Assembly: GCF_000018105.1 (NCBI RefSeq)
Contig: NC_009925.1
Span: 5,940,001 to 5,972,000, forward strand
Reading direction: 5' to 3'
Source of the DNA: Acaryochloris marina MBIC11017
Lineage (GTDB): Bacteria; Cyanobacteriota; Cyanobacteriia; Thermosynechococcales; Thermosynechococcaceae
Length of the DNA: 32,000 nt
Under the pieces are notes generated by a model. That model saw only the letters and a program-made list of their open reading frames with translations, did not search any database and had not been told where the DNA came from. Of this stretch, positions 2,855 to 32,000 are shown piece by piece (positions within the stretch are counted from its first letter, which is position 1; each line of letters begins with the position of its first letter). Position numbers and translations under genes: made by a program.

Positions 2855-3045
2855 GGGATGAAAAACAGCGATACCACATCGTGAAATGAATATTGCAAGA
2901 GGTCTATTGACAGAATCTTCTAAACTAAAGCCTTAGTAGAGAAAAGGCTGTGCCACAAGTGGTAGTTTCGTAAGGCTTTAATCACTGTGCGAGGGAGGCT
3001 CTTAGCTCAGCAGCTCTTTTCAAACTTTATCCCTCTACTCGCCTA

Positions 3046-3861
3046 TTACTGATCTTCCCAGTTATCAGCTGTACAACGGCCTGCATCAGTAATGGCAATG
3101 GGTTGGATATCACCTTTGTAAGTACCGATTCGGGTTAGGCCCAAGGTGTTGGAAATAGCGATGCAGTGCTTTTTTCCACTAGCATTGTTTGGATTGAAAA
3201 AAATAATCTTGCCACTGGGGTCGGTTGGACTGGCTTGAGCGCTAATGATGGCAAACTCTGGATTTCCTAAAACGCCATATTTAATGGGAATGAGCTGATC
3301 TTTACAAGTCCCTAGCCCTAAGCCTTCATCAATATTCCCTTTGCATTTTTCAGCAATAACCTGAACCACCATACCTGCGTCGGTCCATTGGCTTTTATGC
3401 TCGGGTGCAGATGCCATGGCAATCTGCGAAATGTTCTCTCCGTCATTGAGGCCAAGGGAGGGTGCTTGGACATCTGAACTGATCCACACAGGCTGACTTT
3501 CATCGTCTTGGGCTGTGTTGGCTGTGGGATCAATCAAATTTGTCGCGATAGCCACACTGGTTTCCAAACTGCGATCGCTAACTTTAAGACAAGATCCCGA
3601 AATTTGTCCTGCATCAAAATTAAGGGTCAGAGTGCAGATTTTATTACCTTTGATCGCTTCTCGTTGCGTTTCATTCAACGCGGCCTGTACTTTAGCCATC
3701 GTCTGTTTTACTTTGGCTCGATTCATTGCAGCCATAATACTGGGAGCTGAAACAGCAGCGGCAATGCCGATAATGGCAACAATTACCATTTTTTCAGCCA
3801 GGCTAAACCCTAATTCTGAAGACGAAGACCTAAGTGCAATGAAGGGATGTAAACGAAACAT
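3046..3861 (-). CDS. Prepilin-type pseudopilin, GspH/FimT-like
   Basis: The track ORF is 3046..3924. I prefer the internal ATG at 3861 (MFRLHPFIALRSSSSELG/FSLAEKMVIVAIIGIAAAV). This is a prepilin cleavage/methylation motif: G then F, Glu at +5, then a hydrophobic helix. The following AALNETQREAIKGNKICTLTL resembles the GspH/FimT fold region. Confidence 0.75.
   Translation of the reverse strand: MFRLHPFIALRSSSSELGFSLAEKMVIVAIIGIAAAVSAPSIMAAMNRAKVKQTMAKVQAALNETQREAIKGNKICTLTLNFDAGQISGSCLKVSDRSLETSVAIATNLIDPTANTAQDDESQPVWISSDVQAPSLGLNDGENISQIAMASAPEHKSQWTDAGMVVQVIAEKCKGNIDEGLGLGTCKDQLIPIKYGVLGNPEFAIISAQASPTDPSGKIIFFNPNNASGKKHCIAISNTLGLTRIGTYKGDIQPIAITDAGRCTADNWEDQ
3571..3578. repeat. HIP1 octamer GCGATCGC (one of nine dispersed copies)
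   Basis: The copies start at 3571, 5359, 10397, 14255, 21711, 23007, 23265, 25652 and 28203. About 0.5 would be expected by chance. This is a cyanobacterial genome signature. Confidence 0.9.
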
Positions 3862-4005
3862 GGCAAATTCCAGGGGAAGGAAACAAAGACTAAAGGGTGA
3901 CCACTTGATTAGTGGGGCACCCATGAAAAAAACTCCTCATCACCCATAAGAATTGCTAAAACTTGAACTGAGTAGATACGAGAAAACTGGTTTAAAGCAT
4001 CGTTG

Positions 4006-5565
4006 TCATAACCTCACCCGTTGCCATTGCAAAACACCTCCAAATCGATACCGTACTGGGTAGTCTACATATTTCAGCAGGTCGATCAAACTGCTAACAT
4101 CTTCAGGTACTGCGATGCCAGAGGTCGCATTGGGGGTGATAACGGTATCGTAGGGGGCACCTACTTCCCCAATGAAATTAATGTCTCGATTGTTGGGGTC
4201 GTTTTTAGAACTGAAAATGCCTTCTGCCCATACCACACCTTCAATATTGGTATTTTGCCCACCTGGGCAACCAGGACCAGAGGTCAGTAATTGCACTTCA
4301 TCCCATGCGGACCAAATGAAGGCATTTTGAATGCAAGTTTGGTCATACAGTAAAACCGTGTCGTCTCCACCCCTCAAATGTATTCGTAGATCGCCAACAC
4401 GAGGCGGTTGGCCATCCGTACGAACGTTAAGGATTTGGGCCATATCCTTTAACTGAATGGCTTGTTCGGGGGCACTATCTTCGATGAAATCTAATACGAC
4501 AGAGCCATTGGTGGTGTCGACCGTCAATACATCAGTTCCAGCTAGGTCAATTTGTTCAATCTGGAAAAGGGTTGGTGTATGGCCTCCGACCCCGCTTAGG
4601 GTTTGGCTGCTGGTGATGGTTCCAAAATTGGTGCCTTTTATCCCATCAGGAATAGTTGGTGTCAACAAACAAGCAAACAGCGTGCCTGAGACGGTATCGC
4701 CTGTTGCCCCATCCGATGCTGAAGAAGAGAATATGGCATTCAGATAACTAGCCCGGTCTATATCTCCCGAAGTTGAATTCGAAGTCAAAGAGGAATCTTG
4801 TGATCCTTGAGGATAGTAGTAAACATTGCCTTTACTACCTAGGATTTGGCGACCCCGTAATGCCAAAACACCGACATGCCAAGGGTCATCAGGTTCAGGG
4901 TCATGAAGAACTAAGCCTGGAAAATCGTCTAAATCGGACCGTACGGCAATCCTGATTTGAACACCTGTGGTTTTTCCATCTTTACTAGCTTCAACAAATA
5001 GTGTTCCTTGTTGCTCCGCCGGATTAAAACGATAAGCTCTAACGGTGTAGGAACCAGTGTTACCCATTGACCCCGTCGTTGCAAAGTTGGGACTGCCCCA
5101 CCCTTTTTGTTGATAGCAAGGGTGGTTACTCGGGTCATAGCTCGTCCATTCGTCAATAGCACTGGCTTCTTCGTCGCCACTATTGAACATGCCGTCGGGG
5201 CCGAGATAAGTTTTTCCTGTTTTGGGGTTAATCGTATCGTAATTGCGATTGAGCAATACGGCGTTATTGGGAGCGGTTAGTTGGGCTAAGGATCGAGCCA
5301 TTCCCCCTTCAGCGATGGCCAAACTGGCCCCTGCTTGTTTGCGATTAAATGCAGATGTGCGATCGCTTTGGGCAACCATTATCGTGGACAAGCCCAAAAT
5401 GACCATCACAAACCCTAAACCCAGGGCAAGAGGCAACGCAAATCCCTGCTCCTGCCGCTTAGAATTCAAGCCTCGAGAACAAAAAACAACTAAGTAATAG
5501 AGGAGTTCTGACAATGGCATACTTTGGATGTTCGTTGCAGCCGATAGTCTGTCCCCAGACAGCAT
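4006..5565 (-). CDS. Large PilX-N / pseudopilin-like protein (HpsA-like architecture)
   Basis: 519-aa ORF. KRQEQGFALPLALGLGFVMVILGLSTIMVAQSDR has the same G/FALP + helix layout as the clipped paralog and lacks Glu+5. An alternative start is M16 (5520). The rest is Gly/Ser/Thr/Asp-rich and predicted extracellular. Confidence 0.75.
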   Translation of the reverse strand: MLSGDRLSAATNIQSMPLSELLYYLVVFCSRGLNSKRQEQGFALPLALGLGFVMVILGLSTIMVAQSDRTSAFNRKQAGASLAIAEGGMARSLAQLTAPNNAVLLNRNYDTINPKTGKTYLGPDGMFNSGDEEASAIDEWTSYDPSNHPCYQQKGWGSPNFATTGSMGNTGSYTVRAYRFNPAEQQGTLFVEASKDGKTTGVQIRIAVRSDLDDFPGLVLHDPEPDDPWHVGVLALRGRQILGSKGNVYYYPQGSQDSSLTSNSTSGDIDRASYLNAIFSSSASDGATGDTVSGTLFACLLTPTIPDGIKGTNFGTITSSQTLSGVGGHTPTLFQIEQIDLAGTDVLTVDTTNGSVVLDFIEDSAPEQAIQLKDMAQILNVRTDGQPPRVGDLRIHLRGGDDTVLLYDQTCIQNAFIWSAWDEVQLLTSGPGCPGGQNTNIEGVVWAEGIFSSKNDPNNRDINFIGEVGAPYDTVITPNATSGIAVPEDVSSLIDLLKYVDYPVRYRFGGVLQWQRVRL

Positions 5566-5757
5566 GGGTAAAAGATTCTTTCCATGACCGATGGATTAAA
5601 GCCAAGCTTCTAAAAAGCTAGCCATCTTCAGACATATGGAAAGAATGAATGCCATTCATGGTTATTGACTTTGCAAACAAAGACCATTCTCTCTTGATAA
5701 TGGCTTTTGTCCAATGCAATTGGCGACAGGGAATACACTCAATTCCCTGCCTGATCA

Positions 5758-5767
5758 GTCTATAGAT
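5758..5767. repeat. Left copy of the 10-bp target-site duplication GTCTATAGAT of the IS4 element
   Basis: Identical decamer at 7251..7260, immediately outside each IR. Confidence 0.9.
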
Positions 5768-7250
5768 CAATGGCACTGACTTAAGCTCAATCAAACAGCT
5801 AGCTTAGCTTTGAGAGCAGAGCGAGGTTGTCGCATTCGCGGGAAAGATTTGGGTCTGCGTTTGACGACTCTCGGTTCGTGCCGATTCGGTCGAGAGGGTA
5901 ATAGATCGGCTGCCATGGTCTCAAGTAGATGAGTAAACAACCGCTTTCTGGTCGCACGGTTGGCTGTCGCCAACAAAGCAAGCATCTGATTGAAGTGTTG
6001 TCGTGCTCCTTGCACAGACAGTTGAGTTCTAGCATTATCTGCTAGCGGTGCCGCAAGTTCCATGAGACTTCTGAGTAGGTTATAGCCCAACAAATGTACC
6101 CAAATGTCCTTGCGCACCATATCCGGAGTTTTGGCACTGAGCATCTCCATTTTTAAGGTGGTTTTGAGATGGCGCAGATTGACTTCCGCCACTGGCCAAC
6201 GCCAGCCATACAAGCGAGTCAGTTGCCCAGCGCTGTAGCGTTGAGCATCCAGCAGCGTCGTCACCACAATAATGTGCTGGTCGCGAAAGCCCTTAAGGGA
6301 TAAGCGCAAACACACCTCTCTAACGACCAATGTTTGAGGAATCAGGGCAAAATCTTGCTCACTCATGTGCTCAGGCCGTTGGGCTGGCTTATGCCATGTC
6401 ACCTGATGATCACCAATGCCATGCTTGTTGCCTTTGCGGAAATCAGTCTTGCGAGCATGATGTTTACGCAACACTCCATCAGCCCTGTGTTGTTGAATGA
6501 TGGCTAGATCAACATAGCTGCCATAAGCTTGGTCCGCCATGACCACATCACCGACCTCAAGGTCTTGATAGAGCAAACGACTCATGACAATTTCACTGGT
6601 GTCCCAGGAGGCAATACAAGCTGACGCCACTGCACCGGTAACCAAACAGAAGAACACTACCAAGCGAGCGATGGGAAAACCACAGCCTGCTGTTTGATTG
6701 CCATGTTGTGGATATGATGCTTGGTTGGCCGCACTATCAGCCATCAACACGGTGGTTCCGTCGTAGACCTTGACGGGCCGACCACACCAGAGGTGCTCTG
6801 GGGAGAGGGGTTGCGCTAAGCACTCAGCGCTTTCGGGAATTAAACGTTGCAACAGTGACTCTGGAAAGCGACTTCTGGCTTTGCTGTAGGCTCCGGTATC
6901 AGATGAGGGCGGTTGGATGCCAGCCGCTGTGAGCCAAGTCGTGATGCATTTGACTGTGTTACGAAGGCTTTTATCGGCTGATAGCACTTGGTAAAGCATG
7001 GCCCACAGCGTAACGATGGGGCTATATATCCGGTTGCGATAGGAGAATGCTTCTTCTTTCAGGAGTTCCTCTAACCTTGAGGCTGGAAGGATATCTGTCC
7101 ACGGTAAACCCAGGCTTTGGGAAAATTGCTGCTTGAGAATTTCGGCTGACTCAGACATAGTGAAAGGCAGAAGTTTATGGCGTGCAAGTCTTGATCCTAT
7201 ATCTATCAAGACTTGTAGCCTTTTCCTGACTTCTTAAGTCAGTGCCATTG
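5768..7250 (-). mobile_element. IS4-family insertion sequence, 1483 bp, perfect 18-bp IRs
   Basis: 5768..5785 is CAATGGCACTGACTTAAG, the exact reverse complement of 7233..7250. A single 472-aa DDE transposase fills the element. It is flanked by a perfect 10-bp direct repeat. Confidence 0.92.
5791..7209 (-). CDS. IS4-family DDE transposase
   Basis: VKVYDGTTVLMAD and GDVVMADQAYGSY are the D contexts. YGWRWPVAEVNLRHLKTTLKME is a YREK-like E region. The likely true start is MSESAEILKQ at 7158. Confidence 0.9.
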   Translation of the reverse strand: MIDIGSRLARHKLLPFTMSESAEILKQQFSQSLGLPWTDILPASRLEELLKEEAFSYRNRIYSPIVTLWAMLYQVLSADKSLRNTVKCITTWLTAAGIQPPSSDTGAYSKARSRFPESLLQRLIPESAECLAQPLSPEHLWCGRPVKVYDGTTVLMADSAANQASYPQHGNQTAGCGFPIARLVVFFCLVTGAVASACIASWDTSEIVMSRLLYQDLEVGDVVMADQAYGSYVDLAIIQQHRADGVLRKHHARKTDFRKGNKHGIGDHQVTWHKPAQRPEHMSEQDFALIPQTLVVREVCLRLSLKGFRDQHIIVVTTLLDAQRYSAGQLTRLYGWRWPVAEVNLRHLKTTLKMEMLSAKTPDMVRKDIWVHLLGYNLLRSLMELAAPLADNARTQLSVQGARQHFNQMLALLATANRATRKRLFTHLLETMAADLLPSRPNRHEPRVVKRRPKSFPRMRQPRSALKAKLAV

Positions 7251-9103: not shown

Positions 9104-12100
9104 CTATTGCAATATCGGCACCACAGGCTGCAAGGGGAATTGGAGGATAAAGGTTGCCCCTTTACCTGGGGCGGATGTGCACGTCAGGGTTCCCCCATAG
9201 CTTTCGATAACTTTGCGACATAATGCCAATCCAATTCCTGTCCCTGGGTATTGATTGGAATAATGCAAGCGTTGAAACATGACAAAAACACGCTCCAAAG
9301 AGTCTTCAGGAATTCCAATTCCATTATCCTTAACCAAGATTGTCCAAGATTCAGGTTGTTGTTCTGCAGAGATCTGAATCCGCGGTGGAGTAGAAGAGCG
9401 AAACTTGATGGCATTATTGATTAGATTTTCAAAAACTTGAGTAATCTCTACGGTATGGGCATGAATAGAGGGGAGTGAGTCAAATTCAATAACAGCCTGA
9501 CTTTCTTCTATCGCTAAACTTAAATCGGATTGCACAATTTCGATCACGTGTTTCAAATCGATCAACTCTAGGGGTTGGTCGCTTCGTCCAACCCGAGAGT
9601 ATTGCAGCACATCTTGAATGAGACATTGCATCCGCTGTGCCCCTGACATGATGTACCCAAAGTATCGGCTTTGATCTTGATCCAGCTTTGTCGATAAATC
9701 GTCTTGTAACAGCTCGGCAAAACTTTGGATTTTACGGAGCGGTTCCCGTAAATCGTGGGAAGCGATATAGGCAAACTGCTCTAGCTCCTGATTCGATCGT
9801 TGTAGCTCTTGAATCGCTTGCTCTAATCTCTTTTGAGAATGCTTGATATCGGAAATATCCATACAGGAACAAATCAAACCAGCAAACTGATCGGCTGCTA
9901 TCCTAGGGACTCCCGTTGCCAAAATCCAACGATAGACGCCATCTGCTCTGGCTTGTCGAAATTCCTGCTCAAAGGGACATTGTTGAGCACAGCTCTCTTG
10001 GAATAAGGTTTTTACTCGATCACGATCCTCTGGATGAATGGTCTCTAGCCATCCGTCACCCAGTTGGGACTCCAAAGATTGGCCGGTCAAATTCTCCCAG
10101 GTTTGATTGACATAGGTACAGTTCCCTTGAGCATCACTGAGCCAGATTAAAACTGGAGCATTGTCTGCTAGGGAGTAAAATCGAGCCTCACTTTCTTGTA
10201 AATTACCTTCAATGGTATGTAAAGAGGCATCTTTTTCAGCTAAATCAGCTTCCAGATTGAGGTTGGATAATTCTAAAGCTGCTTCGGCTTGTTTCTGTAG
10301 GCTGATATCAATACAAGACCCAATCATGCCGGCAAATTCCCCTGTGGGTAGAAATCGAGGCTTGGCGGTATCTAAGATCCAACAATAGGTGCCGTTGCGA
10401 TCGCATCGTCGATACTCTAAACGCAAGGGCTGGCGTTCGGTAACGGCCTGTTGGTAAGCCGCCACACTTTCCTCTAAATCCTCCGGGTGAATTCTATCTT
10501 GCCAACCTCGTTCTAACGCTTGTTCTAGAGAATCCCCGGTAAACCTCAGCCACTCTTGATTCAGATAAGTGCAATGTCCTGGAGCTTCCGTGAGCCAGAT
10601 CATCACAGGTGCATGGTCCGCCATGGAGCGAAATCGCTGTTCGCTCTCTAGTCTCGCAGCTTCTGCCAATTTGCGTTGGCTAATATCGACCGAAACCACT
10701 AAGCATCGAGACACTTCTCCTAGATCATCACGCTCGGCAATCATTGATTGCAACACATCAATGATCTCACCTGATTTGGTCTGTATCTGCATCGGTATAT
10801 CAATGCTCAAACCAGACTCTAGAAAACGCGGCCATAGCTTTTGAAACCGCTTTTGGGACTCTAGGTTGAGAAATATATCGACGGTTGCCCCCAACGTCAT
10901 ATTGCGGGGATACCCTAATTTGGAGAGCCAGAAATTACTGACTTCTATAATCACTCCTCGAGCATCCAAGGAGTACATCATCACCGGGGTTTCATGGTAG
11001 AGCTGCTGATAGCGCTCTTGAAAAACCTCTAGGGTATCCTGGGCTAGCTTGGCTTTAATGCGCTGAGATTGGAGTTCAATCTGGACCTTGCGAGTGGCCG
11101 TAATATCAATAATTGACATCACCACTCCCTGTTGCTCATTATCGTTATCCACATAGGGATGGATCCGAATCAGCAAGTGTTGTCCATGGGCGTTAATTTC
11201 CTGCTCGGTGACTTTGCCAGTGCGGGCTGTTTCCGAGAGGACTTCAATCAACGAGGGATAGTTGACATTGATGGCTAAATTTCGAATCGGACGCCCCACA
11301 TCCGTGGGTAGAAATTGAAAAATTTGATTCGCAGCGGGGGTAAATTTCCGCACTTGCAAACTCTGGTCTAGAAACACCACGCCAATTTCTGTGCTGCGGA
11401 ACAGGTTATCAATGTCATTACTCAGAGCTGTCAATTCCTGAATTTTAGATTGATGTTCATTATTAACGGTGTACAGTTCTTCGTTGACGGCATGTAGTTC
11501 TTCATTGGTACTCTGCAGCTCTTCATTAGAGGCAATCAGTTCCTCGTTAGTAGCCTGCTGCTCTTCATTGGTACTTTCTAACTCCTCAATGGTGGCCTGT
11601 AGATTTTCGCGAGTATAAGACAGTTCCAACTCCAGCTGCTCAATCCGGTTGATCACCTCCGTACTACTTTCTACAGCCTGATCTTGTGCAGGGGGAGAAT
11701 TGCGGGAGCTAGCGGAGATCTCAAGTCTCAAGAACATCGATTCTCGGCAATTGGATTGGCAGGGGCTAACCTTGAACCTTAAGTCAAGCGGTCCATCCTT
11801 GTGCTCCCACAAGAGGCTGCTAAACTGTACTGGCTGCTTTTCTCGAAGGACTCGACTCATCGCCGAGATAAAGGGCAAATGCATCACCTCGGGGAGCAAG
11901 GATCTGACATTTTCAGTGGCTGGCCCCTCTGGGATACGTAAAATATCCAGGTGATCGGCACAAACCCGAAGTAACTTCTCGTCCGTATCCAGCAACAGAC
12001 AAGTCATGTTCAGTTCTTCAAGATGGGCTTTAAACGCATTCTCAGTCAGAGGGTCAGCTTGACGGCGGTAGCGAGGATCTCGCCCCGACACGACTGGTGT

Positions 12101-13612
12101 AGCAATCGTTTTAGTTCGAAAATAGTTTAGATTCAGGCGTTGATCCCTGAATTTCGAAAATATCTTATTTTTAGAATGTAAAACCTCAAATTCAGGCTCT
12201 AGTTCACCTAGGTCTTCAGAGGTTCCCAATAATAGAACTCCGCCCTTATTTAGGGAAAAATGCAGATTGCGCAGTACATACTGCTGCAAAGTAGGCTGCA
12301 TATAGATCAGCACATTCCGACAGCACACGACATTCATGCGGGTCAGACTGGCATTTTTGGTTAAATCATGGGGCGAGAAAATCAGCATTTCTCGCAAGGT
12401 TCGTTTAATCGTGAAGTGACCGTTATTGTAGGTGAAATATTTCTGCAGCCGGTCTACACTCACATAATCCGCAATAGACTCATCAAAGCTCCCTAATGCA
12501 GCTTTGTCTAGAGCAGTCTGATCGATGTCTGTTGCAAAGAGCTTAATGGGCATCTGTCGTCCCAGTTCCTCGCACAGCTCTCGAACAATAATCGCCATGG
12601 AATAAGCTTCCTGACCTGTCGCGCAGGCGGTTACCCATATCCTTAAGGTTTCTGCTGCGGGAAAATCTGCAATGATAGGACGCAAAACCTTATCTTTTAG
12701 GTATTCCCAAACCTTCTCATCTCGAAAGAATTGGGTGACATTAATCAGTAAATCCCGGCGTAGTAGGGAACGTTCATCGGCAGATTCGGTTAAGAGGCTG
12801 GCATAGTCGTTCAGTGAATTGTTTTGGGTTAAGAGTCGGCGGCGTTCGACTCGGCGGCCCAGAGTGGATGGTTTATATTGGGAAAAATCGATATCTTCAT
12901 GCTTGGCTAGCAACTCTACAATTTTTTGGAGTTGATGGGCTTCTGCACCTAAGTTGCTGCTAAATTTCACTAAATCTGCTGGAACGATGGCAGGATTTCC
13001 TAAATCGTTCACCATTTGCGCCAGAACTTTTGGAGCTTCTACATAATCAATACATCCAGTACTGATAGCGGTATGGGGCATACCATCGAATTCAGCCGTA
13101 TTGGGGTCTTGAACTAACGTAATCCCCCCACTTTCATGGATATGTTGGAGCCCATGGGTACCGTCGCTCCCTGTACCAGAGAGAACAATACCAATAGCAC
13201 GTTCTTGAATATCATCTGCCAAGGACTGAAAAAATAAATTAATAGGAAAGTTCGGCTTTTGGTCTCGCTTCTGGCGATAGAGGTAAAGGCAACGGTCCCG
13301 AACAATCATATTTTGACCTGCCGGGATCAAATAGATTGAATTGGGCTGAAGTGCCATCCCTTCTTCTGCAATCTGAATGCCCATTTGGGTACGACGGCCC
13401 AAAATTTCATTCATTAAACTCTTAAAATCTGGGGACAAATGTTGAATAACAACAAAAGCCACCCCCGAGTCAGGAATTATATTTTCAAAGAAAACTTCAA
13501 GAGGCTTCAGGCCACCTGCGGATGCTCCAACGGCAACGACATAGAATGAAGGAGCAATAGTGTTTAGCGTATTTGAATCAGCATTTAGGGATGGGTGATC
13601 GTTAGAATTCAT
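9104..13612 (-). CDS. CheB methylesterase - CheR methyltransferase - multi-PAS - HisKA/HATPase hybrid sensor kinase (1502 aa)
   Basis: The N-terminus has CheB motifs ([28 protein letters not shown]). A CheR SAM-methyltransferase region follows ([26 protein letters not shown]). Then come a NEEL coiled coil, several PAS/PAC units (IHPEDL x2), the H-box [16 protein letters not shown], and the N/G boxes NLINNAIKF and DNGIGI...GTGIGLALC. Confidence 0.9.
11432..11599 (-). repeat. In-frame 21-nt (heptad) repeat array encoding EExx[AS][ST]N units
   Basis: My translation gives [56 protein letters not shown], starting at about aa 672 of the 1502-aa protein. It is coding periodicity, not a CRISPR or VNTR. 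Confidence 0.9.
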
Positions 13613-14223: not shown

Positions 14224-16767
14224 ATGGAAATTAGAGAACTAGCGATTTCTAATTGCGATCGCGAGCCCGTTCATATTCCGGGTCGCATCCAAATCTTTGG
14301 GGCTCTGATTGCTACAGATAAGCATCTTGAGTCCATCACTCATGTTTCCAGTAATATCAGTGATTTTTTGGGAGTCACCCCTGCGGATGCTCTAGGACAA
14401 TCTCTCAGTATTTTGCTGCCAGAAGAGGTGATTCATACCCTCAGAAATATCGCAGGCCATCCCACCATCGCAACTCATCGGGAGCGAGCAGGGGTCTATC
14501 CACTCCATCAGTCCATGCTAGATATAAGTTTGCATCGATTGGGGCCTCATTTTCTAATTGAACTAGAGTCAGTTCCCTCGGCACAGCTCAACAGCCAATC
14601 CGCTTTTACTAAAATCCAAATGCTTCTGGCCCGTCTGCAAGATGAAACGGCAACCTCAGCCCTACTGCAACTAGCCGTCAAAGACTTGCAGCAAGTGACA
14701 GAGTTCGATCGAGTTATGGCGTATCAATTTCTACCCGATGGGGCTGGGGAAGTTGTCGCCGAAGCCATGGTAGATGAGTTGGAACCCAATCTTGGCCTCA
14801 GATACCCCGCTTCAGATATCCCTCAACAGGTCCGTGGGATTGCCTTAAAGATGCCTATCCGTGCGATCTCCGATATTGATGCTCCCACCGCCGACTTAAT
14901 TGCCGCCGATCCAACCGCAGATCCCCTAGACCTTACCCTGACCCATGTGCGGGCTGTATCTCCCATTCATCTGGAGTATTTAGCCAATATGGGGGTTCAA
15001 TCCTCCATGAATGTGGCCATTATTGTCCATAGGGAACTATGGGGGCTTTTTGCGTTTCACCACAACAGTGTCAAATTATTGCCCCCTGATTACCGATCCA
15101 TCTGCGATTTGTTTGGCCAACTTTTTTCCCTCAAATTCCAGTTGGTTTTGGAAGAAGAGCGGTTCAATAACCGCAAACACATTATTTCAGCGATCTCTCA
15201 GATCACCCAAAAACTGACGAGCAGTGGCAGTTTTACGCTAACCATACAAACTTTAGGGCCACAACTCTGCTCCATGCTCTCGGCCCAGGGGTTGGCCGTT
15301 ATTGACAAGCAAGAGATTCAAACCTATGGGGATGTTCCAGCGCTCGATATCATTCAAGAACTGGTTCATCAGGTTCAAACCCATCCCAGTCCTGAACTGG
15401 TGCCCCTAGAAAACCTATCCCACCTCGACCGTATCGATGCAAACCAACTGGGTAAAACGGCCGGTGCCCTCTGCCTTGGTATATCCCCCCTCGACGAAGT
15501 CTTCGTTATTTTCTTTCGCAATGAAATTATCCATGAAGTTCGCTGGGCCGGATCGCCAGAAAAACAGATAGTCGAAGGGCCAAACGGCCCCCGATTACTC
15601 CCCCGTTCCTCCTTTGCAGAGTATCGGGAAACGGTTGCAGGCCAATGCCAATCTTGGTCGTCCCTCGACACAGAAGCGGCCTTGGAATTGCGGACTGGGC
15701 TAATGCAGCTAGCGATCAGTCAAGGAGAAAACCAGCAGCAGGAATGGTTAAGACAACAGCGACAACAAGATCTCTTAATTGCTGAACTTAACCACCGCGT
15801 TAAAAATATTCTGGCCTTAATCCGGTCCATCTCCCGCCAAACCCGCCACTCCACTACTTCCGTCGAGGAATATACCTTACTGTTAGACCGCCGCATTGAA
15901 GCTCTAGCCCATGCCCATGATTTGGTGTCTGGGCATGGCTTGGAATGGCCCAATCTACAAAACTTGTTAACAACTGGACTCCGGCCTTACCTAGCAAAAC
16001 CCAAGCACCAAGTTAGTTTCTCTGGCCCAGAAGTGGGGTTAAAAGCCAACTTTGTTCCCATGTTTGCCTTAGTCATTCATGAACTGATGACGAACTCTGC
16101 CAAGTATGGGGCTTTATCAGTTCCTACCGGAAAAGTTGATGTCTGTTGGCGGGAACAGGATGGAGGGTTGGCATTTGATTGGGAGGAATCGGATGGACCG
16201 ACCGTCTTGCCGCCCCAGCGTAAGGGGTTTGGACAGACGTTAATCGAGCGAGCAATACCGTTTGAGTTTGAAGGAGAGGCAACGCTTCGCTTCCTCCACA
16301 CAGGCATTCAAGTCAATTTTTGGCTGCCTGCCCACCTGATCCTGCTCCAGAATGACCCATCAGAAATTTCCCCTCCTTCAATGTCCACCCCCCAGAACGA
16401 GGAGGAGCCTGACATTGCTCCTGGTACGGTTCTTCTTGTTGAAGACAACATGTTACTGGCCCTCGAAATGGAAAATCTTCTAGAGTCTTTAGGATTTAGC
16501 GATATAGATACGGCCCCCAGGGTCAAGCAGGCCATTAAACTCCTAGACCAAAAGCAATACATCATGGGTATATTAGACATCAACCTCAAGGACGAGAATA
16601 GCTTTGGCGTAGCAGAAGAACTGATCAAGCGACGAATACCATTCCTATTTACGACTGGCTATAATTCCAAATTTACTCTTCCAGAATCTCTAGCCACAGT
16701 CCCCATGCTCAAGAAGCCCATTGATGGGAATCAATTAAACAACACCATTCATCAACTCTTAGCCTAA
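14224..16767 (+). CDS. Bacteriophytochrome (PAS-GAF-PHY) with HWE-type histidine kinase and C-terminal receiver
   Basis: There is an N-terminal Cys in SNCDREPVHIPG (Cys11, 14254..14256) and the DIP motif YPASDIPQQVR. SPIHLEYLANMGV has no GAF Cys, and LWGLFAFHH follows. The PHY tongue has WAGSPEK and PRSSF. The HWE signature is ELNHRVKN plus FDWEESDGP...KGFGQTLIE. The receiver has LLVEDN...ILDINL...KKP. Confidence 0.9.
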   Translation: MEIRELAISNCDREPVHIPGRIQIFGALIATDKHLESITHVSSNISDFLGVTPADALGQSLSILLPEEVIHTLRNIAGHPTIATHRERAGVYPLHQSMLDISLHRLGPHFLIELESVPSAQLNSQSAFTKIQMLLARLQDETATSALLQLAVKDLQQVTEFDRVMAYQFLPDGAGEVVAEAMVDELEPNLGLRYPASDIPQQVRGIALKMPIRAISDIDAPTADLIAADPTADPLDLTLTHVRAVSPIHLEYLANMGVQSSMNVAIIVHRELWGLFAFHHNSVKLLPPDYRSICDLFGQLFSLKFQLVLEEERFNNRKHIISAISQITQKLTSSGSFTLTIQTLGPQLCSMLSAQGLAVIDKQEIQTYGDVPALDIIQELVHQVQTHPSPELVPLENLSHLDRIDANQLGKTAGALCLGISPLDEVFVIFFRNEIIHEVRWAGSPEKQIVEGPNGPRLLPRSSFAEYRETVAGQCQSWSSLDTEAALELRTGLMQLAISQGENQQQEWLRQQRQQDLLIAELNHRVKNILALIRSISRQTRHSTTSVEEYTLLLDRRIEALAHAHDLVSGHGLEWPNLQNLLTTGLRPYLAKPKHQVSFSGPEVGLKANFVPMFALVIHELMTNSAKYGALSVPTGKVDVCWREQDGGLAFDWEESDGPTVLPPQRKGFGQTLIERAIPFEFEGEATLRFLHTGIQVNFWLPAHLILLQNDPSEISPPSMSTPQNEEEPDIAPGTVLLVEDNMLLALEMENLLESLGFSDIDTAPRVKQAIKLLDQKQYIMGILDINLKDENSFGVAEELIKRRIPFLFTTGYNSKFTLPESLATVPMLKKPIDGNQLNNTIHQLLA

Positions 16768-16781
16768 AAGGATCTGGACAA

Positions 16782-17189
16782 TTGGCTAATATCCTGATAT
16801 TTGAAGACGATTTAATACTGGCAGAGTCTTGGCACAAAACCCTTAGTGCTCAAGGGCACCAGGTTGAACATACCACCAATGTCGATACGGCAATGTCCAA
16901 AATTTATGAAGGATATCTAGACATTGCTTTCATCGATATTTTTATTCAAAAGAACAATCAAGAGAGTCTTAGGGGAGGGATTTTGCTGATTTCCAAAATC
17001 AACATGCTCTCCCTAGGGTATAAACCATGGCTTATTGCCATTAGTGGACGTTCTCATGATCCCAGTTGTTCAGTCTTAGAAATTGCCAAGACAGTCGGTG
17101 CAGATGAATATCTGAAGAAACCGATCGATTTGGAGGAGTTAATTGCTGCAGTCGAACGAGTGACAAGTGCCCAGGTCAAAGAGCAGTAG
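16782..17189 (+). CDS. Single-domain response-regulator receiver (CheY-like)
   Basis: TTG start 14 nt after the phytochrome stop. Motifs are ILIFEDD, IAFIDIF and YLKKP. No output domain. Confidence 0.8.
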   Translation: MANILIFEDDLILAESWHKTLSAQGHQVEHTTNVDTAMSKIYEGYLDIAFIDIFIQKNNQESLRGGILLISKINMLSLGYKPWLIAISGRSHDPSCSVLEIAKTVGADEYLKKPIDLEELIAAVERVTSAQVKEQ

Positions 17190-26880: not shown

Positions 26881-27162
26881 TTACTTTTTAGGAGCAACTT
26901 TTTCCTTAAATAGCTTACCTGCAGAGAAAGCTGGAACTTTAGTTGCGGGAATCTTCATTTTCGCACCGGTCTTGGGGTTACGTCCTTCCCGGGCCTTGCG
27001 TTCGCGAGGTTCAAATGAGCCAAATCCCACCAATGTGACTTTTTCTCCTGATGAGACAGATTCAACAATGGCCTCTAAGGCGGCAGTCAGAACTGCATCT
27101 GCCTGCTTTTTCGTGACACTTGCCTTATCAGCAACGGCGTCGACGAGTTCTCCTTTATTCAT
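26881..27162 (-). CDS. hup: HU-family DNA-binding protein
   Basis: MNKGELVDAVADKASVTKKQADAVLTAALEAIVESVSSGEKVTLVGFGSFEPRERKAREGRNPKTGAKMKIPATKVPAFSAGKLFKEKV is a canonical HU. Confidence 0.95.
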   Translation of the reverse strand: MNKGELVDAVADKASVTKKQADAVLTAALEAIVESVSSGEKVTLVGFGSFEPRERKAREGRNPKTGAKMKIPATKVPAFSAGKLFKEKVAPKK

Positions 27163-27855
27163 TGATTGACTCCTATTGTTCAGTTAAGCGTGAGCAAAAA
27201 AAATCGAGTCTGCAGTTCCAGAAAAATATAGATAAAACATTAGATTTATCTGGAGTGTGACTACAGTCTAACTGGCTGAAATGTCGCAACCACGTCGATT
27301 TAATGGAATATTCTAAATGCTATTCGCTAAATATAGATCGACAGAACCTTGATAATCTCTGGATTTCAGGTTTTTTTTGGTAATTACGAGTTTATGGCTA
27401 GAAAATTTTGGAGTGTTTCGGCAAAAGTTACAGACAAGTAAAAACCCCAGGATTCTTATTATATATGCATTTCAGGTATTCTTGTTCTAATGATTCTCGA
27501 TTGTTAATGACTAACAGGTTTTATTTGTCAGAAGAAATTTAATCCTGTAAAAAATTATTAAGTTAAGGCTCTTTTGGCGGTCTCAGCTGATAACAAGCTG
27601 TCCTTACAGTTGAAAAAAGTGAATGAAGTCTGAAAATTATTCTGCTTTTACCCACCCGTTTATATCCGCTAGGTAAAGTTCTGCTTGAAATTTAATTTCT
27701 TAACGACCGATGGATTGCTGGCTATATTTACTGAAATTTTATCTTTTGTTAATAATTGACGGAGCCAAAACGCAAAGTATTCTGATTAGAAAGCTAAGAA
27801 ATATGCACGGCTTCTTCTCGCTTCTGATAAATCTGAGAAAGAGATAGATGGTCGA

Positions 27856-27939
27856 TTAGACCTTTTTATCGATCACATCTTCTATTGATATAGAAAGCAG
27901 GTGCCAATTTAGACCTCTTTGAAGGTTGCAGTTAGACCT
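27856..27939 (+). promoter_or_regulatory. Three same-orientation copies of TTAGACCT(Y)T upstream of the tube operon
   Basis: Copies lie at 27856..27863, 27909..27916 and 27932..27939, with start-to-start spacings of 53 and 23 bp. They sit 116-199 bp upstream of the ATG at 28055. A random octamer is expected about once per 65 kb per strand. Confidence 0.45.
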
Positions 27940-28054
27940 TTGGCTACTATCAGTCGCTCTGTTTGCTCCATAGAGTGAAGCTGGTCCCTTATACCTTGTC
28001 CGAAGCAGGGGGATTGGGGGTTGGCGGGGAGAGTTGTGAATAGGTACTTGCCAT

Positions 28055-28276
28055 ATGAACCATGAGAATCAGTCTCTAGGAGGAAACTGGGGAATTTCAG
28101 GGGGGAACGGTTCGCCTAGACTGTCTGAGCTATCTGAAAGAGATAGGGTTTTCAGATTAGCAGCCCAGATTTTGCAAGATCCTCTGGCGCAATCTAATTT
28201 ATGCGATCGCATCTATGAATTGATGCAAAACGACTTGCATTATCAGCGCGAGCGAACCTACGGTGGAGGGTACTAG
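28055..28276 (+). CDS. Small hypothetical protein (73 aa), translationally coupled to the tube gene
   Basis: The Gly-rich N-terminus (LGGNWGISGGNGSP) is followed by a predicted helical C-terminus (RVFRLAAQILQDPLAQSNLCDRIYELMQNDLHYQRE). Its TAG stop overlaps the GTG start of the next gene (TAGTG at 28274..28278). Confidence 0.55.
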   Translation: MNHENQSLGGNWGISGGNGSPRLSELSERDRVFRLAAQILQDPLAQSNLCDRIYELMQNDLHYQRERTYGGGY

Positions 28277-28839
28277 TGGCTAGCAACAGTGAAACCCATA
28301 ACCTTAACTACGTCACCGCCAATCGCTTCTATGTCGAAATCCAAGAAAAGAGCTACATCAGTGCTTGCTTTACTGAATGTTCGGGGTTAAGCGCCAAAAT
28401 TAAGCATGACACCTATTTTGAAGGCGGCGTCAACAACCAGCAGCGGATCATACTCGGTCAAACTGAATTTTCTGATGTCACCCTCAAGCGGGGGATCACT
28501 AATGATCTGGTGTTTTGGGGGTGGGCCAGTCGTGTGCTTACCCAATTAGAACCGACCGATCGTAATGTCAATCCCCAACGTCGCAACATCAACATCCTCT
28601 TGTTCAATCAAGCGGGAGAAACCATTCAAACCTGGACCTTAATTGGTGCCGTCCCTGTGGCTTGGCAAGCACCCGCCCTCCAAGCAGACACCTCTACCGT
28701 TGCCATCGAAGAACTCACCTTGGCTTACGAAGGTCTAAAGGTTGTTGCCAATCTGCAACCCAGCAGCAATGCAGGTGGTGGGGCCACCTTCTTACAAGGT
28801 AGAGATGCAAATGCTGGAGGATTCTATCCCAGTAATTAA
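28276..28839 (+). CDS. Contractile-tail tube protein homolog (T4 gp19 / Afp1-Pvc1 / conserved phage-tail-region family)
   Basis: The family pattern is present: FYVEI...F.ECSGL...Y.EGG.N...L.G...FSDVTLKRGI....W.W, then RRNINILLFNQAGETIQTWTLIGAVPVAWQAPALQADTSTVAIEELTLAYEGL. A non-family tail of about 35 aa follows (ANLQPSSNAGGGATFLQGRDANAGGFYPSN). Confidence 0.85.
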   Translation: MASNSETHNLNYVTANRFYVEIQEKSYISACFTECSGLSAKIKHDTYFEGGVNNQQRIILGQTEFSDVTLKRGITNDLVFWGWASRVLTQLEPTDRNVNPQRRNINILLFNQAGETIQTWTLIGAVPVAWQAPALQADTSTVAIEELTLAYEGLKVVANLQPSSNAGGGATFLQGRDANAGGFYPSN

Positions 28840-28851
28840 CCTGCAAAGTTT

Positions 28852-31800
28852 ATGGATGCTAATTCAGGCCAAGGTCATCAATCTCCATCGGAAGAGATCC
28901 CTTCCTTAGACTCGCTTGGCCTTCAGCATCCATTGCTCCCTCCTCCGGCTCTAGGACAATCCTTTCTCCAACCCCATACCCTATCTCCCTTGGGCGCTGT
29001 ATCCCTAATCAATTTGGATACCCCTCTGCCGACCGAAACGGCTTGGGCAAATTCTCTAGGTAGTCAGGTTCCTAACCAGGTGCCAGGGGAAGCCATTGGC
29101 AACGGCTCCACGGGCCTTTCCAACATTTCTGATTCCTTCGTAACTCAGTCTCCAGAAACCCAACCCAACACTCTTGCTCCGAAAGTACCCACCGAAAGTC
29201 TGCAACCCAAATTAGAACAAACACCCTCCCATCAGCGACAGTCAAGCGCTCAGAACAACCCTGGCAAAATCGATAGTAATGCCGCTAGTACACCAAAAGT
29301 GCAACAGGCACCCTCTCTTGAGACTGGTGCAGTCATTAATAATGACCAACCCCAAATATCAGCCCCTTCTATTCAGCCTGCTCAGGATAGAGAACAAGAG
29401 ACTAGGGAAAGACCTGTTACTAAGCAAGCTGAGTCAGGAACACAGATTGCCCAAGAACAAAACAGCCCTGAAATAACGCTCCAACCCAAACTAAACAAGG
29501 CTCAACAGTTTAGCCCTCCACCCGCGAAATCCCATCTTCAACAATCAACCCTTTCCCCTGTTTCTCCCTCACAGGACGAAACTACTGGAGACCAGACATC
29601 ATCAGAGGTGGTTTCTAAGCAGACTATTTCTGAATCCAAACAGAAGTCTGAACAAACGACTAACCCAATCGTCCATTCCACCTCTAACGCAATATCTCCA
29701 GAGGTGAGTACTTCTGCGGAAGCACCAGATGGGTCCCCCCTCCAAGCGAAGCACCAGAATATCCTGGAAACTAAAGTTGCTTCTGAACCCTCCATAATCC
29801 AAGAGAGTCTCCCCCAGTCTCATGAACAATCCACTTCTCCTAACTCAGAAGTTAAATCTTCAGGCCCAAAACCTTCACCTTCTGCTAGGGCTACAAATGA
29901 TGATCCGTCGCCAACCCAAGACTCAGTCATCTCTGCCCCCAATCAGCCCAGCATCCAAAAAGCTTCGGCTACCAATGACCATTCTTTAGATCGATCTGCA
30001 CAAACAGCCCAGGTTGCCCAAAGTAAAGAAGTCTCCCTTCCAACAGCATCTCCACCTTCGAGTCAAAAACCAGTTATCTCTGCTCAACCCAACCAGGAAC
30101 CGCAAGTATCTAGCACTCAACCTAACAAATCCCAATCCGTTTCAATCCAAACTTCGCTGGAAGCCATAGCTCAAAGCAATAAGGAGGTAGCCACTAAATC
30201 ATCCCAACAAGGGACTGACACCTCAACGGACTTACCTAATAGTCAACCTATCGAATCTCAATCCATTTCTCAAACTTCACTGGAGACCACAGCTCACAGC
30301 GAGCAGGTTAGTACTAAACCATCCCAACAAGGGACTAACAGCAACACAGCTAAACCAGCTAGTGAGACTATCCAGTCATCTCCAATTCCCCCTATCGATC
30401 TGCAACCTAGCAACTCACAGCTTTCCCTCACAAATTCCAAAGAAGACGCTAACCCAAGTAGCTCAACTGATAGCAGCTCTTCAACTGAGACACCCATAAC
30501 ATCTAGCTCTCCCACCATACCTAGGGGGAAATCAATAGAAACAACACCTATTGAACAAGTCGCCCAAGCATCTCCTCAGCAATCTCTAGGTGAGAAGCCT
30601 TTATTGATTGAGAATTCCGAGACACCAAACTCAACAGCCCAGAGTAGCGAGAGTCAAACAGATACAACTGTTATTCAAAAAATAGAAAGTTCGGCAGCTC
30701 AGCAATCTTCTACTGACCACCCGCATACATCGAAGATAGAAACGAACCAAACTAGTCCGACTAGTCCCTCTTCCTCATCAAATGAAACTCCCCCTACATC
30801 CAGCACTACCCAAAAAACTGATGAGGATGCGGCACGGGCAACCGTTATTCAAAGAGCAGACGAACCATCTCCCGAGGCATCCACTAAAACAACTTCAAAA
30901 CAACAGATTAAAAAAAACAAACAGAAAAAGATTCCCTTACAAGCGCAGCTATCGCGCATGGGGAAACGAGCTAAACAGGATATTCATAAAGTTGGGATTC
31001 AGCTCAAGCAGGCATCTCATTCATTCCCCACTGGTCAATCTAGAGCCAAAACAAAAGGGTTGCAGAAATCCACTAGTGATTCTCCCCAACCGTCAAATCC
31101 TCCATCTATCCAAACCAAATCATCTCCCGACTCAAAGCAATCACCCTCTGAAGTACCTTTAGTCCAAAGTGAAGCCGAGGCTATAGAACAAGTTTCTCCT
31201 CAGGAATCTGTCAGGGAAGAGGCTTTACTAGAGAAAACTGAGATTGCTAACCATGAACAGAATTCTCTAACGGTTCAAGCAGCCCCTGAGTCTAAAGACT
31301 CACCCCAAAAGCATCCTCATGCTACTCCAGCGACCTCTGAACCGACGATTGAACCGACGATCGATCAAGACATACAATCTGACTCAGTCACAGATCTCCA
31401 AAAGAAGTCTGAGTCGGCCTCAGATTTTACAATTACTGGACAGCATCGAAATAATTCTGAATCTTCAACACCCGAGGTTAGTGTTAATCAGCTAAAGACG
31501 ACTTCATCGCCTAGTGCTACTTCAAGTGCTGGGACTGAAACTTCCCGACTAAAAACAAAGAAGTGGGGACAATTACCAGCACACCCCCTAAAACGGCTGA
31601 CCCATCTCAGTCAGCAGGTCATGGACACGGTTAGTCGTCAACTTGAACCTCATCCGAATGAAGAGTTCAATCCATTTCAAAGGCAAGAGCAGAATTTACC
31701 TAAAAACTCAAACCAGAAGCGTGAAGATCAGACCATTAGCCCTGCCTCACTTCACAGATCTGTAAATGGAGATCCCCAACCCTTACAAGATAGTGGTAGT

Positions 31801-32000
31801 GAAAATAAATCCGCAGCAACGTCCATTCAATCAGACATTCAAGCGAAGTCCTATTTACCCAATGCAAGTCTAGACACCGCTAGTCTATCAAAGCCTGAAC
31901 TTAGTTCAGATGAACAAGCGCATCTCAACAGTCAAACAGATTACCTCACCGATGTAAGTGCTGAAGAGCATCGCCAAACTCAAGAATTACCCACTGTACA
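28852..32000 (+). CDS. Giant low-complexity Ser/Gln/Pro/Thr/Glu/Lys-rich protein, partial (>1049 aa, continues beyond window end)
   Basis: Absent from the track because it runs off the edge. Every sequence line from 28861 to 31981 starts in this frame. I read all of them as triplets and found no TAA, TAG or TGA. The ATG is at 28852, 12 nt after the tube stop. I noticed no Cys codon and only two Trp codons. Confidence 0.8.
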   Translation, partial: MDANSGQGHQSPSEEIPSLDSLGLQHPLLPPPALGQSFLQPHTLSPLGAVSLINLDTPLPTETAWANSLGSQVPNQVPGEAIGNGSTGLSNISDSFVTQSPETQPNTLAPKVPTESLQPKLEQTPSHQRQSSAQNNPGKIDSNAASTPKVQQAPSLETGAVINNDQPQISAPSIQPAQDREQETRERPVTKQAESGTQIAQEQNSPEITLQPKLNKAQQFSPPPAKSHLQQSTLSPVSPSQDETTGDQTSSEVVSKQTISESKQKSEQTTNPIVHSTSNAISPEVSTSAEAPDGSPLQAKHQNILETKVASEPSIIQESLPQSHEQSTSPNSEVKSSGPKPSPSARATNDDPSPTQDSVISAPNQPSIQKASATNDHSLDRSAQTAQVAQSKEVSLPTASPPSSQKPVISAQPNQEPQVSSTQPNKSQSVSIQTSLEAIAQSNKEVATKSSQQGTDTSTDLPNSQPIESQSISQTSLETTAHSEQVSTKPSQQGTNSNTAKPASETIQSSPIPPIDLQPSNSQLSLTNSKEDANPSSSTDSSSSTETPITSSSPTIPRGKSIETTPIEQVAQASPQQSLGEKPLLIENSETPNSTAQSSESQTDTTVIQKIESSAAQQSSTDHPHTSKIETNQTSPTSPSSSSNETPPTSSTTQKTDEDAARATVIQRADEPSPEASTKTTSKQQIKKNKQKKIPLQAQLSRMGKRAKQDIHKVGIQLKQASHSFPTGQSRAKTKGLQKSTSDSPQPSNPPSIQTKSSPDSKQSPSEVPLVQSEAEAIEQVSPQESVREEALLEKTEIANHEQNSLTVQAAPESKDSPQKHPHATPATSEPTIEPTIDQDIQSDSVTDLQKKSESASDFTITGQHRNNSESSTPEVSVNQLKTTSSPSATSSAGTETSRLKTKKWGQLPAHPLKRLTHLSQQVMDTVSRQLEPHPNEEFNPFQRQEQNLPKNSNQKREDQTISPASLHRSVNGDPQPLQDSGSENKSAATSIQSDIQAKSYLPNASLDTASLSKPELSSDEQAHLNSQTDYLTDVSAEEHRQTQELPTV

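Follow-up and report, generated by a model that had tools for sequence, protein, structure and literature searches.

We analysed a 32,000-nucleotide stretch of the Acaryochloris marina MBIC11017 genome (NC_009925.1, positions 5,940,001 to 5,972,000; this whole stretch is referred to as the window), in the last part of which an open reading frame (ORF) encodes the beginning of a giant protein. A short hydrophobic-Gln motif recurs along this protein, and from its enrichment, its regular spacing and the conservation of its Gln residue we conclude that the motif array is real, non-random and under selection. The gene lies in a module of contractile injection system (CIS) genes. We give somewhat better than an even chance to the reading that the giant protein is a CIS protein of the Streptomyces/cyanobacterial lineage which is tape-measure-derived and encoded in the tape-measure position, and which would lie in the tube lumen, anchored at the spike, with its motifs serving as multivalent loading or docking sites.

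Motif array of the giant protein

A preliminary description of the window, prepared from its letters alone, had noted an ORF running unbroken from 28852 to the window end. Indeed, the frame opened by the ATG at 28852 was still unbroken at 32000, giving 1,049 codons, and near-identical DNA on a 102-kb assembly contig (L001; 1 base different in 13,725) provided the remainder. The full gene (L001:10577-17833) comprises 2,418 codons and extends about 4.1 kb past the window end, and a database record of the identical protein of 2,418 amino acids (aa) is named 'hypothetical protein [Acaryochloris marina]'.

The preliminary description had counted about two dozen [ILV]Q sites in the window part and quoted ten peptides around them. 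All ten peptides were found (aa 116-995), and we counted 26 sites with a mean spacing of 38.9 aa. Expected counts were taken from 2,000 composition-preserving shuffles. The [ILV]Q sites exceeded expectation both in the window part (26 vs 17.1, P = 0.01) and in the full protein (64 vs 38.8), and the longer form [ILV]Q[RKPA] did so by a much wider margin, at 14 copies in the window part (4.2 expected) and 40 in the full protein (9.7 expected), counts that none of the 2,000 shuffles reached. The earlier remark that this low-complexity sequence is not featureless was thus sustained. The controls were flat or depleted (reversed motif, 12 vs 9.8 expected; [ILV]N[RKPA], 1 vs 4.6; [ILV]Q[DE], 2 vs 5.1). 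The motif density of the giant protein was 1.65 per 100 aa. The core is flanked by P or T two residues upstream, by K after its third residue and by an acidic residue at Gln+4, and about 45 copies of the resulting form, [TP]-x-[ILV]-Q-[RPAK]-[KQ]-x-[ED], are distributed roughly evenly along the body. Their spacing showed a median of 49 aa with a standard deviation of 30 aa, and the placement was more even than random (coefficient of variation 0.57 vs 0.96, P < 2e-4).

The motif positions were compared among 10 divergent Acaryochloris homologues. Identity was 77% at the motif Gln, 56% at other Gln residues and 43% on average over the body, and the conservation peak fell sharply on the motif Gln. 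When motif codons were compared with the rest, the nonsynonymous substitution rate (dN) was halved and the synonymous rate (dS) was lower too, in a sample of only 117 codons. The strict form [ILV]Q[RKPAT] occurs 16 times in the window part. The ORF and these copies are as follows.

28852..32000, + strand: giant ORF, first 1,049 of 2,418 codons, member of the unannotated 'ERER-tail' CIS family described below
29197..29211, + strand: motif copy SLQPK, aa 117; L117 and Q118 are invariant in 15 homologues
30844..30858, + strand: motif copy VIQRA, aa 666; Q667 and R668 are nearly invariant
nt 28963, 29368, 29476, 29737, 29950, 30142, 30397, 30670, 30844, 30934, 31057, 31105, 31270, 31393 and 31834: the 15 [ILV]Q[RKPAT] copies other than SLQPK

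The same kind of motif was found in proteins carrying DUF4157 (eCIS_core), a domain of extracellular contractile injection system (eCIS) cargo. The preliminary description had stated that LQ(R/A/P)K-type peptides are typical of the N-terminal regions of such proteins, and this was correct: in 120 cyanobacterial eCIS_core proteins, [ILVM]Q[RKPA] occurred upstream of the domain 681 times against 143 expected (2.94 per 100 aa) and downstream of it at 0.55 per 100 aa. These 120 proteins are mutually related, so that their counts are not independent, and the pattern is general nonetheless. The IQR variant, as in VIQRA, is also typical of these N-terminal regions. Furthermore, two eCIS_core proteins encoded beside a relative of the giant gene on a JGI metagenome contig (L011) carry QIQKKA, PIQAKLTIGQPNDQYEQEAD, PIQRQE, IVQRQS and TMQRK around the domain. 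AlgoCIS cargo needs the disordered region that precedes its DUF4157 domain in order to be loaded into the tube lumen, DUF4157 itself being dispensable for this step, and the loading sequences were concluded to share disorder only, not sequence (bioRxiv 10.64898/2026.05.27.728243). [quoted passage not shown] Since DUF4157 proteins carry the motif mainly in their N-terminal part and the equivalent region is the loading signal of AlgoCIS cargo, the giant protein looks, by its sequence, like a very long loading-region motif array that carries neither DUF4157 nor an effector domain.

The preliminary description had also supposed that a DUF4157 metallopeptidase-like domain would follow beyond the window. 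This proposal, that the giant is a DUF4157 effector, is favored by the type of its motif, which matches DUF4157 N-terminal regions, and was refuted by the full-length sequence: the 2,418 aa contain no PF13699 domain (E ≤ 10), no NCBIfam match and no HExxH (regular expression H[ED]xxH), and the domain was absent from all 36 long relatives checked. We leave it practically no probability.

The body of the protein was predicted to be disordered. As the preliminary description had stated, the window part consists largely of S, Q, P, T, E, K and N (66% of residues), with no Cys and two Trp; Ser and Thr make up 25% of the giant. Its mean hydropathy was -0.96 and its highest 19-residue Kyte-Doolittle value 0.81, and no transmembrane-like or hydrophobic segment was found in the hydropathy scan. 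The full 2,418 aa matched no Pfam (hmmscan, E ≤ 10), NCBIfam or PHROG family. Disorder prediction, suggested earlier as a check, agreed with this composition: the AlphaFold 2 (AF2) model of the window part had a mean predicted local distance difference test score (pLDDT) of 35, with 970 of 1,049 residues below 50, and helices were predicted only at aa 696-721 and 911-931, both within or near conserved islands. In the last 260 aa, one confident helix was predicted (aa 2383-2407, pLDDT 73-88), the rest being disordered; this helix lies inside the invariant C-terminal end EILAREIYHVLRQRLEVERERHGGYQSGRLPW.

28894..29016, + strand: conserved N-terminal island, aa 15-55, EIPSLDSLGLQHPLLPPPALGQSFLQPHTLSPLGAVSLINL; about 90% identity among divergent homologues
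30937..31014, + strand: conserved basic amphipathic helix, aa 696-721, LQAQLSRMGKRAKQDIHKVGIQLKQA; AF2 block-mean pLDDT 59-75
31582..31644, + strand: second conserved helix predicted by AF2, aa 911-931, HPLKRLTHLSQQVMDTVSRQL; conserved island at aa 919-934
30925-31020 and 31582-31653: conserved amphipathic stretches inside the window, the other two lying beyond it

The N-terminal island holds the first motif copy and the hallmark PLG..PLL...LGQ..LQP.FL.PLGA.S, which is also present in the relatives P0016, P0020, P0024, P0025, P0044, P0053 and P0071 and in that of Phormidesmis (L016). The island at aa 692-723 showed 84% identity. Four short conserved basic amphipathic stretches (aa 692-723, 911-934, about 1100-1135 and about 1312-1345) break the disordered body every 200 aa or so, and these could be membrane- or tube-binding. 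By eye, a degenerate unit of about 100 aa was seen at aa ~1920-2180 (L001 ~16330-17110), in two long copies and one shorter partial copy (..HRRIIEIPAQRPD.. / ..LQRRVIEIAAQSPE..), each of which carries the motif; self-BLAST of the giant at E < 1e-3 reported no internal repeats, this unit included.

We obtained 15 homologues of the giant protein, and all those with an organism name came from Acaryochloris. They keep a length of 2,188-2,476 aa despite about 45% identity and many insertions and deletions (indels). When the gene was compared with that of Acaryochloris sp. CCMEE 5410, dN/dS was 0.59 and every indel was in frame (82 gap columns); the flanking tube, tube-initiator and spike genes gave dN/dS values of 0.02-0.06. 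From this ratio and the restriction to in-frame indels, the giant is a genuine, fast-evolving coding gene that behaves like a disordered region.

The 'ERER-tail' family and its gene module

The relatives were collected from 1.84 billion representative proteins with a profile of the last 260 aa of the giant protein (E ≤ 0.001). This search yielded 255 representative proteins (clusters), and the listed matches lay at or near the C-terminus. We define this group here as the 'ERER-tail' family; it is unannotated and its members are labelled 'hypothetical protein'. The family is marked by an invariant amphipathic terminal helix of consensus LExLAREIYxLLRQRLEIERERxGxYSGRLPW (core LAREIYxxLRQRLEIERERxG..GRLPW) and by a second element, 'WSSIEELL' (WSS[IV]E[ED]L). 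Many members also carry 'ITVAQLL', 'LVFTPEGF' and the N-terminal PLG..PLL..LGQ..LQP.FL.PLGA.S. All the marks of the family, namely the terminal helix, the WSS element and the place downstream of a Cis5-like tube gene, are present in the A. marina protein. Complete-looking members measure 228-1,480 aa, to which the giants of 2,188-2,500 aa are added. The 70-aa member P0058 had been considered as a plug-sized form pointing to a Cis6 origin and was rejected, being a truncated gene call whose ORF is open to the contig start; in this call (L017:1-318), IIFTPEGF is still inside. Such truncated calls occur on short metagenome contigs, and family length statistics therefore need complete genes only.

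The motif is also enriched outside Acaryochloris, with 852 copies against 243 expected in 146 members and a median spacing of 43 aa. Many members are built of tandem repeats with the motif in every unit (P0025, P0026, P0037, P0053). Two classes were distinguished. In one, comprising 115 members including the A. marina protein, motif enrichment was strong, with an observed/expected ratio of 4.15. The other is characterised by the stretch GYATGG..SDTVPAMLTPGEFVIN..HINxGG, which matched three PHROG 'tail length tape measure' families and showed 50% identity over 65 aa (E = 2e-9) with annotated tape-measure proteins of Nodularia cyanophages.

The preliminary description had placed the giant ORF in a CIS locus, and its neighbours bear this out, tube, CIS_tube, VgrG-like and PAAR-like genes being found around it. 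The A. marina module is compact and co-directional, and consists of a 73-aa ORF, a tube-family gene, the giant gene and, past the window, the genes for a CIS_tube protein (191 aa), a VgrG-like spike (652 aa) and a DUF4280 PAAR-like protein (130 aa).

28055..28276, + strand: small ORF, 73 aa, the first gene of the module; C-terminal helix-like end ...DRIYELMQNDLHYQRERTYGGGY
28276..28839, + strand: tube-family protein (Phage_T4_gp19), 187 aa; PF06841, E = 7.6e-37
28055-28276 (window), L011:9243-9437, L012:9328-9477 and L018:11926-12168: small ORFs with a helix-like end

Against NCBIfam, the tube-family protein scored 75 bits with CIS5_fam and 29 bits with CIS1_fam, both under the cut-off; by these scores it stands nearer the Cis5 tube adaptor than the Cis1 main tube. 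Its dN/dS was 0.055. In the tube homologue search, the matches listed were all orthologues of the A. marina tube protein, with no second Acaryochloris paralogue among them. The C-terminal tail of the protein lies outside the family domain, and its conserved part is GGGAT..GR..GGF[FY][PS]SN. The preliminary description had read the hydrophobic-Gln motif into this tail. Two [ILV]Q sites are present (0.26 expected, P = 0.013), but [ILV]Q occurs in only 7 of 95 orthologous tails; judging from these orthologues, the tail sites are a lineage-specific coincidence, and the claim does not stand.

The stop codon of the 73-aa ORF overlaps the start of the tube gene (TAGTG). This ORF showed a dN/dS of 0.56 and no match in Pfam, NCBIfam, PHROG or PDB, and a small ORF of 49-91 aa is also present 5' of the tube gene in L011, L012, L013, L016 and L018. 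The C-terminal stretch of the small ORFs, ..[IV]YEL[ML]..DL.[YLQ]Q[RK][ED][RK].., resembles the terminal helix of the giant, LAREIYxxLRQRLEIERER, in a weak alignment of 20-34% identity. The small ORF may be a paralogous short form of the giant's helix or a partner in the same coiled coil. We also looked for homology of the terminal helix or the 73-aa ORF to solved plug or tape-measure chains and found none, the PDB search having returned only chance matches such as FOXP3 and LENG1.

The gene order small ORF, Cis5-like tube, family member, CIS_tube and VgrG, followed by PAAR where the locus reaches that far, recurs in L011, L013 (a high-GC contig), L014 and L016. In the Brasilonema plasmid (L018), the CIS_tube gene is absent from the PLSDB gene table and an ORF fills that gap; the family member of this plasmid is QDL19174.1, annotated 'hypothetical protein'. 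The first three genes of the module stand alone in L012. In Phormidesmis and Brasilonema, the module lies within complete clusters containing sheath, Pvc16_N/DUF4255 cap, AAA+ ATPase, gp25 and Baseplate_J genes and DUF4157 effectors, and Baseplate_J of the cyanobacterial type was closest to that of the Streptomyces CIS (about 37% identity). When Baseplate_J was searched by tblastn against plasmids, no Acaryochloris appeared among the 25 records and 10 organism names listed. The genes downstream of the family member gave weak Phage_P2_GpU and clear Phage_GPD matches. Read as tube, X, GpU-like, GpD-like, the order corresponds to FII, T, U and D of phage P2, and X, the family member, therefore fills the tape-measure slot. 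The preliminary description had noticed neither this position nor the conserved C-terminal anchor, which lies past the window end. No other tape-measure candidate was found in the L011, L016 and L018 loci.

Genes of another kind were seen upstream of the module. A Ser/Thr protein kinase and an FHA-domain protein are encoded directly upstream of the small-ORF/tube/giant module in Brasilonema (L018:8783-11618), a faint PBP_like_2 and an FHA protein in L013:6358-9095, and a PBP_like_2 protein in L012:6982-9255; a possibly kinase-like ORF lies on the opposite strand near the tube gene in L015:6678-8876. This arrangement recalls PpkA/Fha, the threonine-phosphorylation switch of type VI secretion. 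No such pair adjoins the A. marina module.

In the window itself, an AT-rich non-coding region of about 880 bp (27170-28054) separates a divergent HU gene from the first gene of the module, and the GC content is 0.37 at 27001-28000 against about 0.49 in the flanking intervals. Rfam gave no match over the window, no terminators were found in 27000-29000, and promoter-like sites there were no commoner than in shuffled sequence. At 29001-32000, along the giant ORF, GC skew was -0.21 to -0.31 and AT skew +0.20 to +0.30, both being near zero elsewhere in the window; the skew stems from codons rich in C and A, those for Ser, Gln, Pro, Thr, Glu and Lys, and is not a replication signal. No further injection-system genes were found in the window, the remainder consisting of housekeeping, sensor-kinase and transposase genes. 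A mobile-element remnant region occupies 2025-7209, with an HTH_Tnp_4 ORF (2025-2492, + strand) and a DDE_Tnp_1 transposase gene (5791-7209, - strand), and two unassigned ORFs lie between these transposon-type genes (3046-3924 and 4006-5565, - strand). A CheB-CheR-PAS-histidine-kinase fusion of 1,502 aa (9104-13612, - strand) is adjoined by a bacteriophytochrome with HWE kinase and receiver domains (14224-16767, + strand), and two single-domain response regulators flank the latter. These genes are a light/chemosensory cluster unrelated to the injection module.

Interpretation and alternatives

By analogy with the C-termini of tape measures and with the Cis6 plug, the C-terminal helix would anchor the giant protein in the tube-initiator/spike hub. 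The disordered chain would fill the tube lumen and be expelled on firing. Each motif copy would provide a short linear docking site whose binding partner is also used by the cargo; candidates for it are the tube lumen, the Cis15 AAA+ loader and the DUF4157 domain. The giant would accordingly be a multivalent scaffold or loading tape within the lumen rather than a folded enzyme. By our own order-of-magnitude estimate, which assumes protein density and a lumen about 4 nm wide, one 266-kDa chain fills about 25 nm of lumen and three chains about 76 nm. The latter length is comparable to the 22-ring tube of the Anabaena CIS (119 nm), so that a trimer could occupy most of a standard tube.

Several observations weigh against this interpretation. 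A classical tape measure is a long helical or coiled-coil protein and grows in proportion to the tail, unlike the giant, for which AF2 predicted a few short helices in a disordered body and no coiled coil. The tenfold length range of the family (228-2,500 aa) poorly fits a simple length ruler. The GYATGG..HINxGG stretch is carried by 31 of 161 members, and in these the motif enrichment was weak (observed/expected ratio 1.9); the A. marina giant is without this tape-measure-like stretch and is tied to tape measures only by the shared C-terminal module and by gene position. The terminal helix, searched against PDB with phmmer and with a 45-sequence profile at E ≤ 10, showed no similarity to solved CIS or phage chains or to plugs. 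In Gloeothece citriformis PCC 7424 (L015:10001-11141), the tube gene is followed directly by CIS_tube, with no family member between and DUF4280 upstream; either the member is elsewhere in that genome or the system runs without one. Furthermore, no sheath, wedge, ATPase or cap gene was found in the 10 kb flanking the A. marina module on each side; the CIS genes identified in this strain are those of the six-gene module.

Cleavage at the motif is a different explanation. The preliminary description had proposed docking or processing sites and a polyprotein-like cargo; in this case a DUF4157-type metallopeptidase or another protease would cut at the hydrophobic-Gln sites, giving about 45 peptides of about 50 aa or releasing cargo. 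The regular spacing and the single sharply conserved Gln would suit such sites, the motif flanks the HExxH-bearing domain of DUF4157 proteins on both sides, and a part played by DUF4157 in 'cargo processing' has been suggested in the PROCIS preprint (bioRxiv 10.64898/2026.05.27.728243). However, no protease is encoded in the A. marina module or within 10 kb of it, and we found no report of DUF4157 proteolysis in the literature. [quoted passage not shown] The inter-motif segments are poorly conserved, and cleavage products would therefore have no conserved content. We regard cleavage as quite unlikely. The motif may instead be functionless, left over from successive duplications of an ancestral unit, about 45 aa long, within a low-complexity sequence that serves as bulk or as a flexible spacer. 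The plain tandem-repeat members with one motif per unit and the fast-evolving body (dN/dS 0.59) agree with this origin. On the other hand, conservation of the motif Gln far exceeds that of its flanks and of other Gln residues, the repeat units differ in sequence between members yet keep the motif, self-BLAST found no significant internal repeats in the A. marina giant, and the N-terminal regions of DUF4157 proteins, which are unrelated, show enrichment of the motif as well. We rate a mere relic lower still than cleavage.

A true ruler made of a disordered chain is a further alternative, in which each motif would dock one tube ring and the tube would be as long as the motif count dictates, irrespective of helix length. 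The protein is encoded in the tape-measure position with no other candidate in sight, and the spacing is regular at about 43-52 aa. By our own estimate, a disordered segment of 50 residues has a root-mean-square end-to-end distance of about 5 nm, close to a ring rise of 4 nm, and the length of 2,188-2,476 aa is kept in Acaryochloris in the face of sequence divergence. A counting device of this kind is nevertheless hard to reconcile with complete-looking members that differ tenfold in both length and motif number, with a spacing that varies by a standard deviation of 30 aa, and with the few motifs of the subclass carrying the tape-measure stretch; we place its probability just below that of cleavage. 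A wider proposal goes beyond the favored reading of a spike-anchored protein in the lumen. The hydrophobic-Gln-basic peptide might be a general lumen-loading or tube-docking signal of the Streptomyces/cyanobacterial CIS, and the giant a spike-anchored, disordered, multivalent tape that docks ring by ring or recruits DUF4157 cargo, in place of a helical tape measure, which is apparently missing from this lineage. We offer this generalisation tentatively, and consider it possible though doubtful. Afp14-type tape measures have been reported absent from lineage II eCIS (PMC6899500), and the giant is a candidate for the 'missing' tape measure of these systems. How cargo enters the eCIS tube is an open question that limits the engineering of protein delivery, and the motif common to DUF4157 loading regions and the giant is a concrete, conserved candidate for the recognition element. 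In addition, a family of at least 255 sequence clusters now labelled 'hypothetical protein' receives a definition.

Comparison with known systems

The DUF4157 cargo proteins, as represented by the cyanobacterial eCIS_core proteins, resemble the giant in being disordered and in carrying the [ILV]Q[RKPA] motif family, with IQAKL, IQRQE and VQRK. Their N-terminal region is about 100-200 aa long and is followed by DUF4157 and an effector domain, whereas the giant has a motif-bearing region of about 2,100 aa, no DUF4157 and no recognisable effector domain.

The Cis6/Alg6/Afp6 plug is a trimer in the spike cavity, with a C-terminal helix and a flexible part that extends into the tube lumen (PMC8894135, PMC8894136). 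Like the giant, it is encoded between Cis5-like and Cis7-like genes and ends in a C-terminal helix after a flexible region. Unlike the giant, it is far smaller and is composed of an N-terminal strand, a short loop and the C-terminal helix. When the giant was compared with the plug, no PDB chain was found at E ≤ 10, with a single sequence or with a profile, and no NCBIfam match.

The tape measures of phages and eCIS (P2 gpT, T4 gp29, Afp14/Cis14) share with the giant a gene position between tube and hub/spike genes and a conserved C-terminal end. The stretch 'GYATGG...PAMLTPGEFVIN' is common to cyanophage tape measures and one subclass of the family, to which the A. marina member does not belong, and the A. 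marina giant showed no sequence match to tape-measure families in Pfam, PHROG or NCBIfam.

A counterpart in position was Tme (BN159_7576) of the Streptomyces davawensis CIS, a giant protein, about 70% disordered, which co-purifies with the spike and the tube initiator and has been proposed to be derived from a phage tape measure and ejected (PMC11126660). Both proteins are mostly disordered, both are encoded by the largest ORF of their cluster, immediately 5' of the tube initiator and VgrG spike genes, and both belong to the same general CIS lineage, the cyanobacterial-type Baseplate_J being about 37% identical to that of Streptomyces. Tme has an N-terminal DUF4157, predicted transmembrane helices, coiled coils and a C-terminal EndA-like nuclease, unlike the A. 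marina giant, which instead bears the ERER C-terminal helix, the PLG N-terminal motif and about 45 short motifs. Taken together, the giant is Tme-like in position and is without every defining domain of Tme, and it represents an undescribed family with a conserved array of short motifs.

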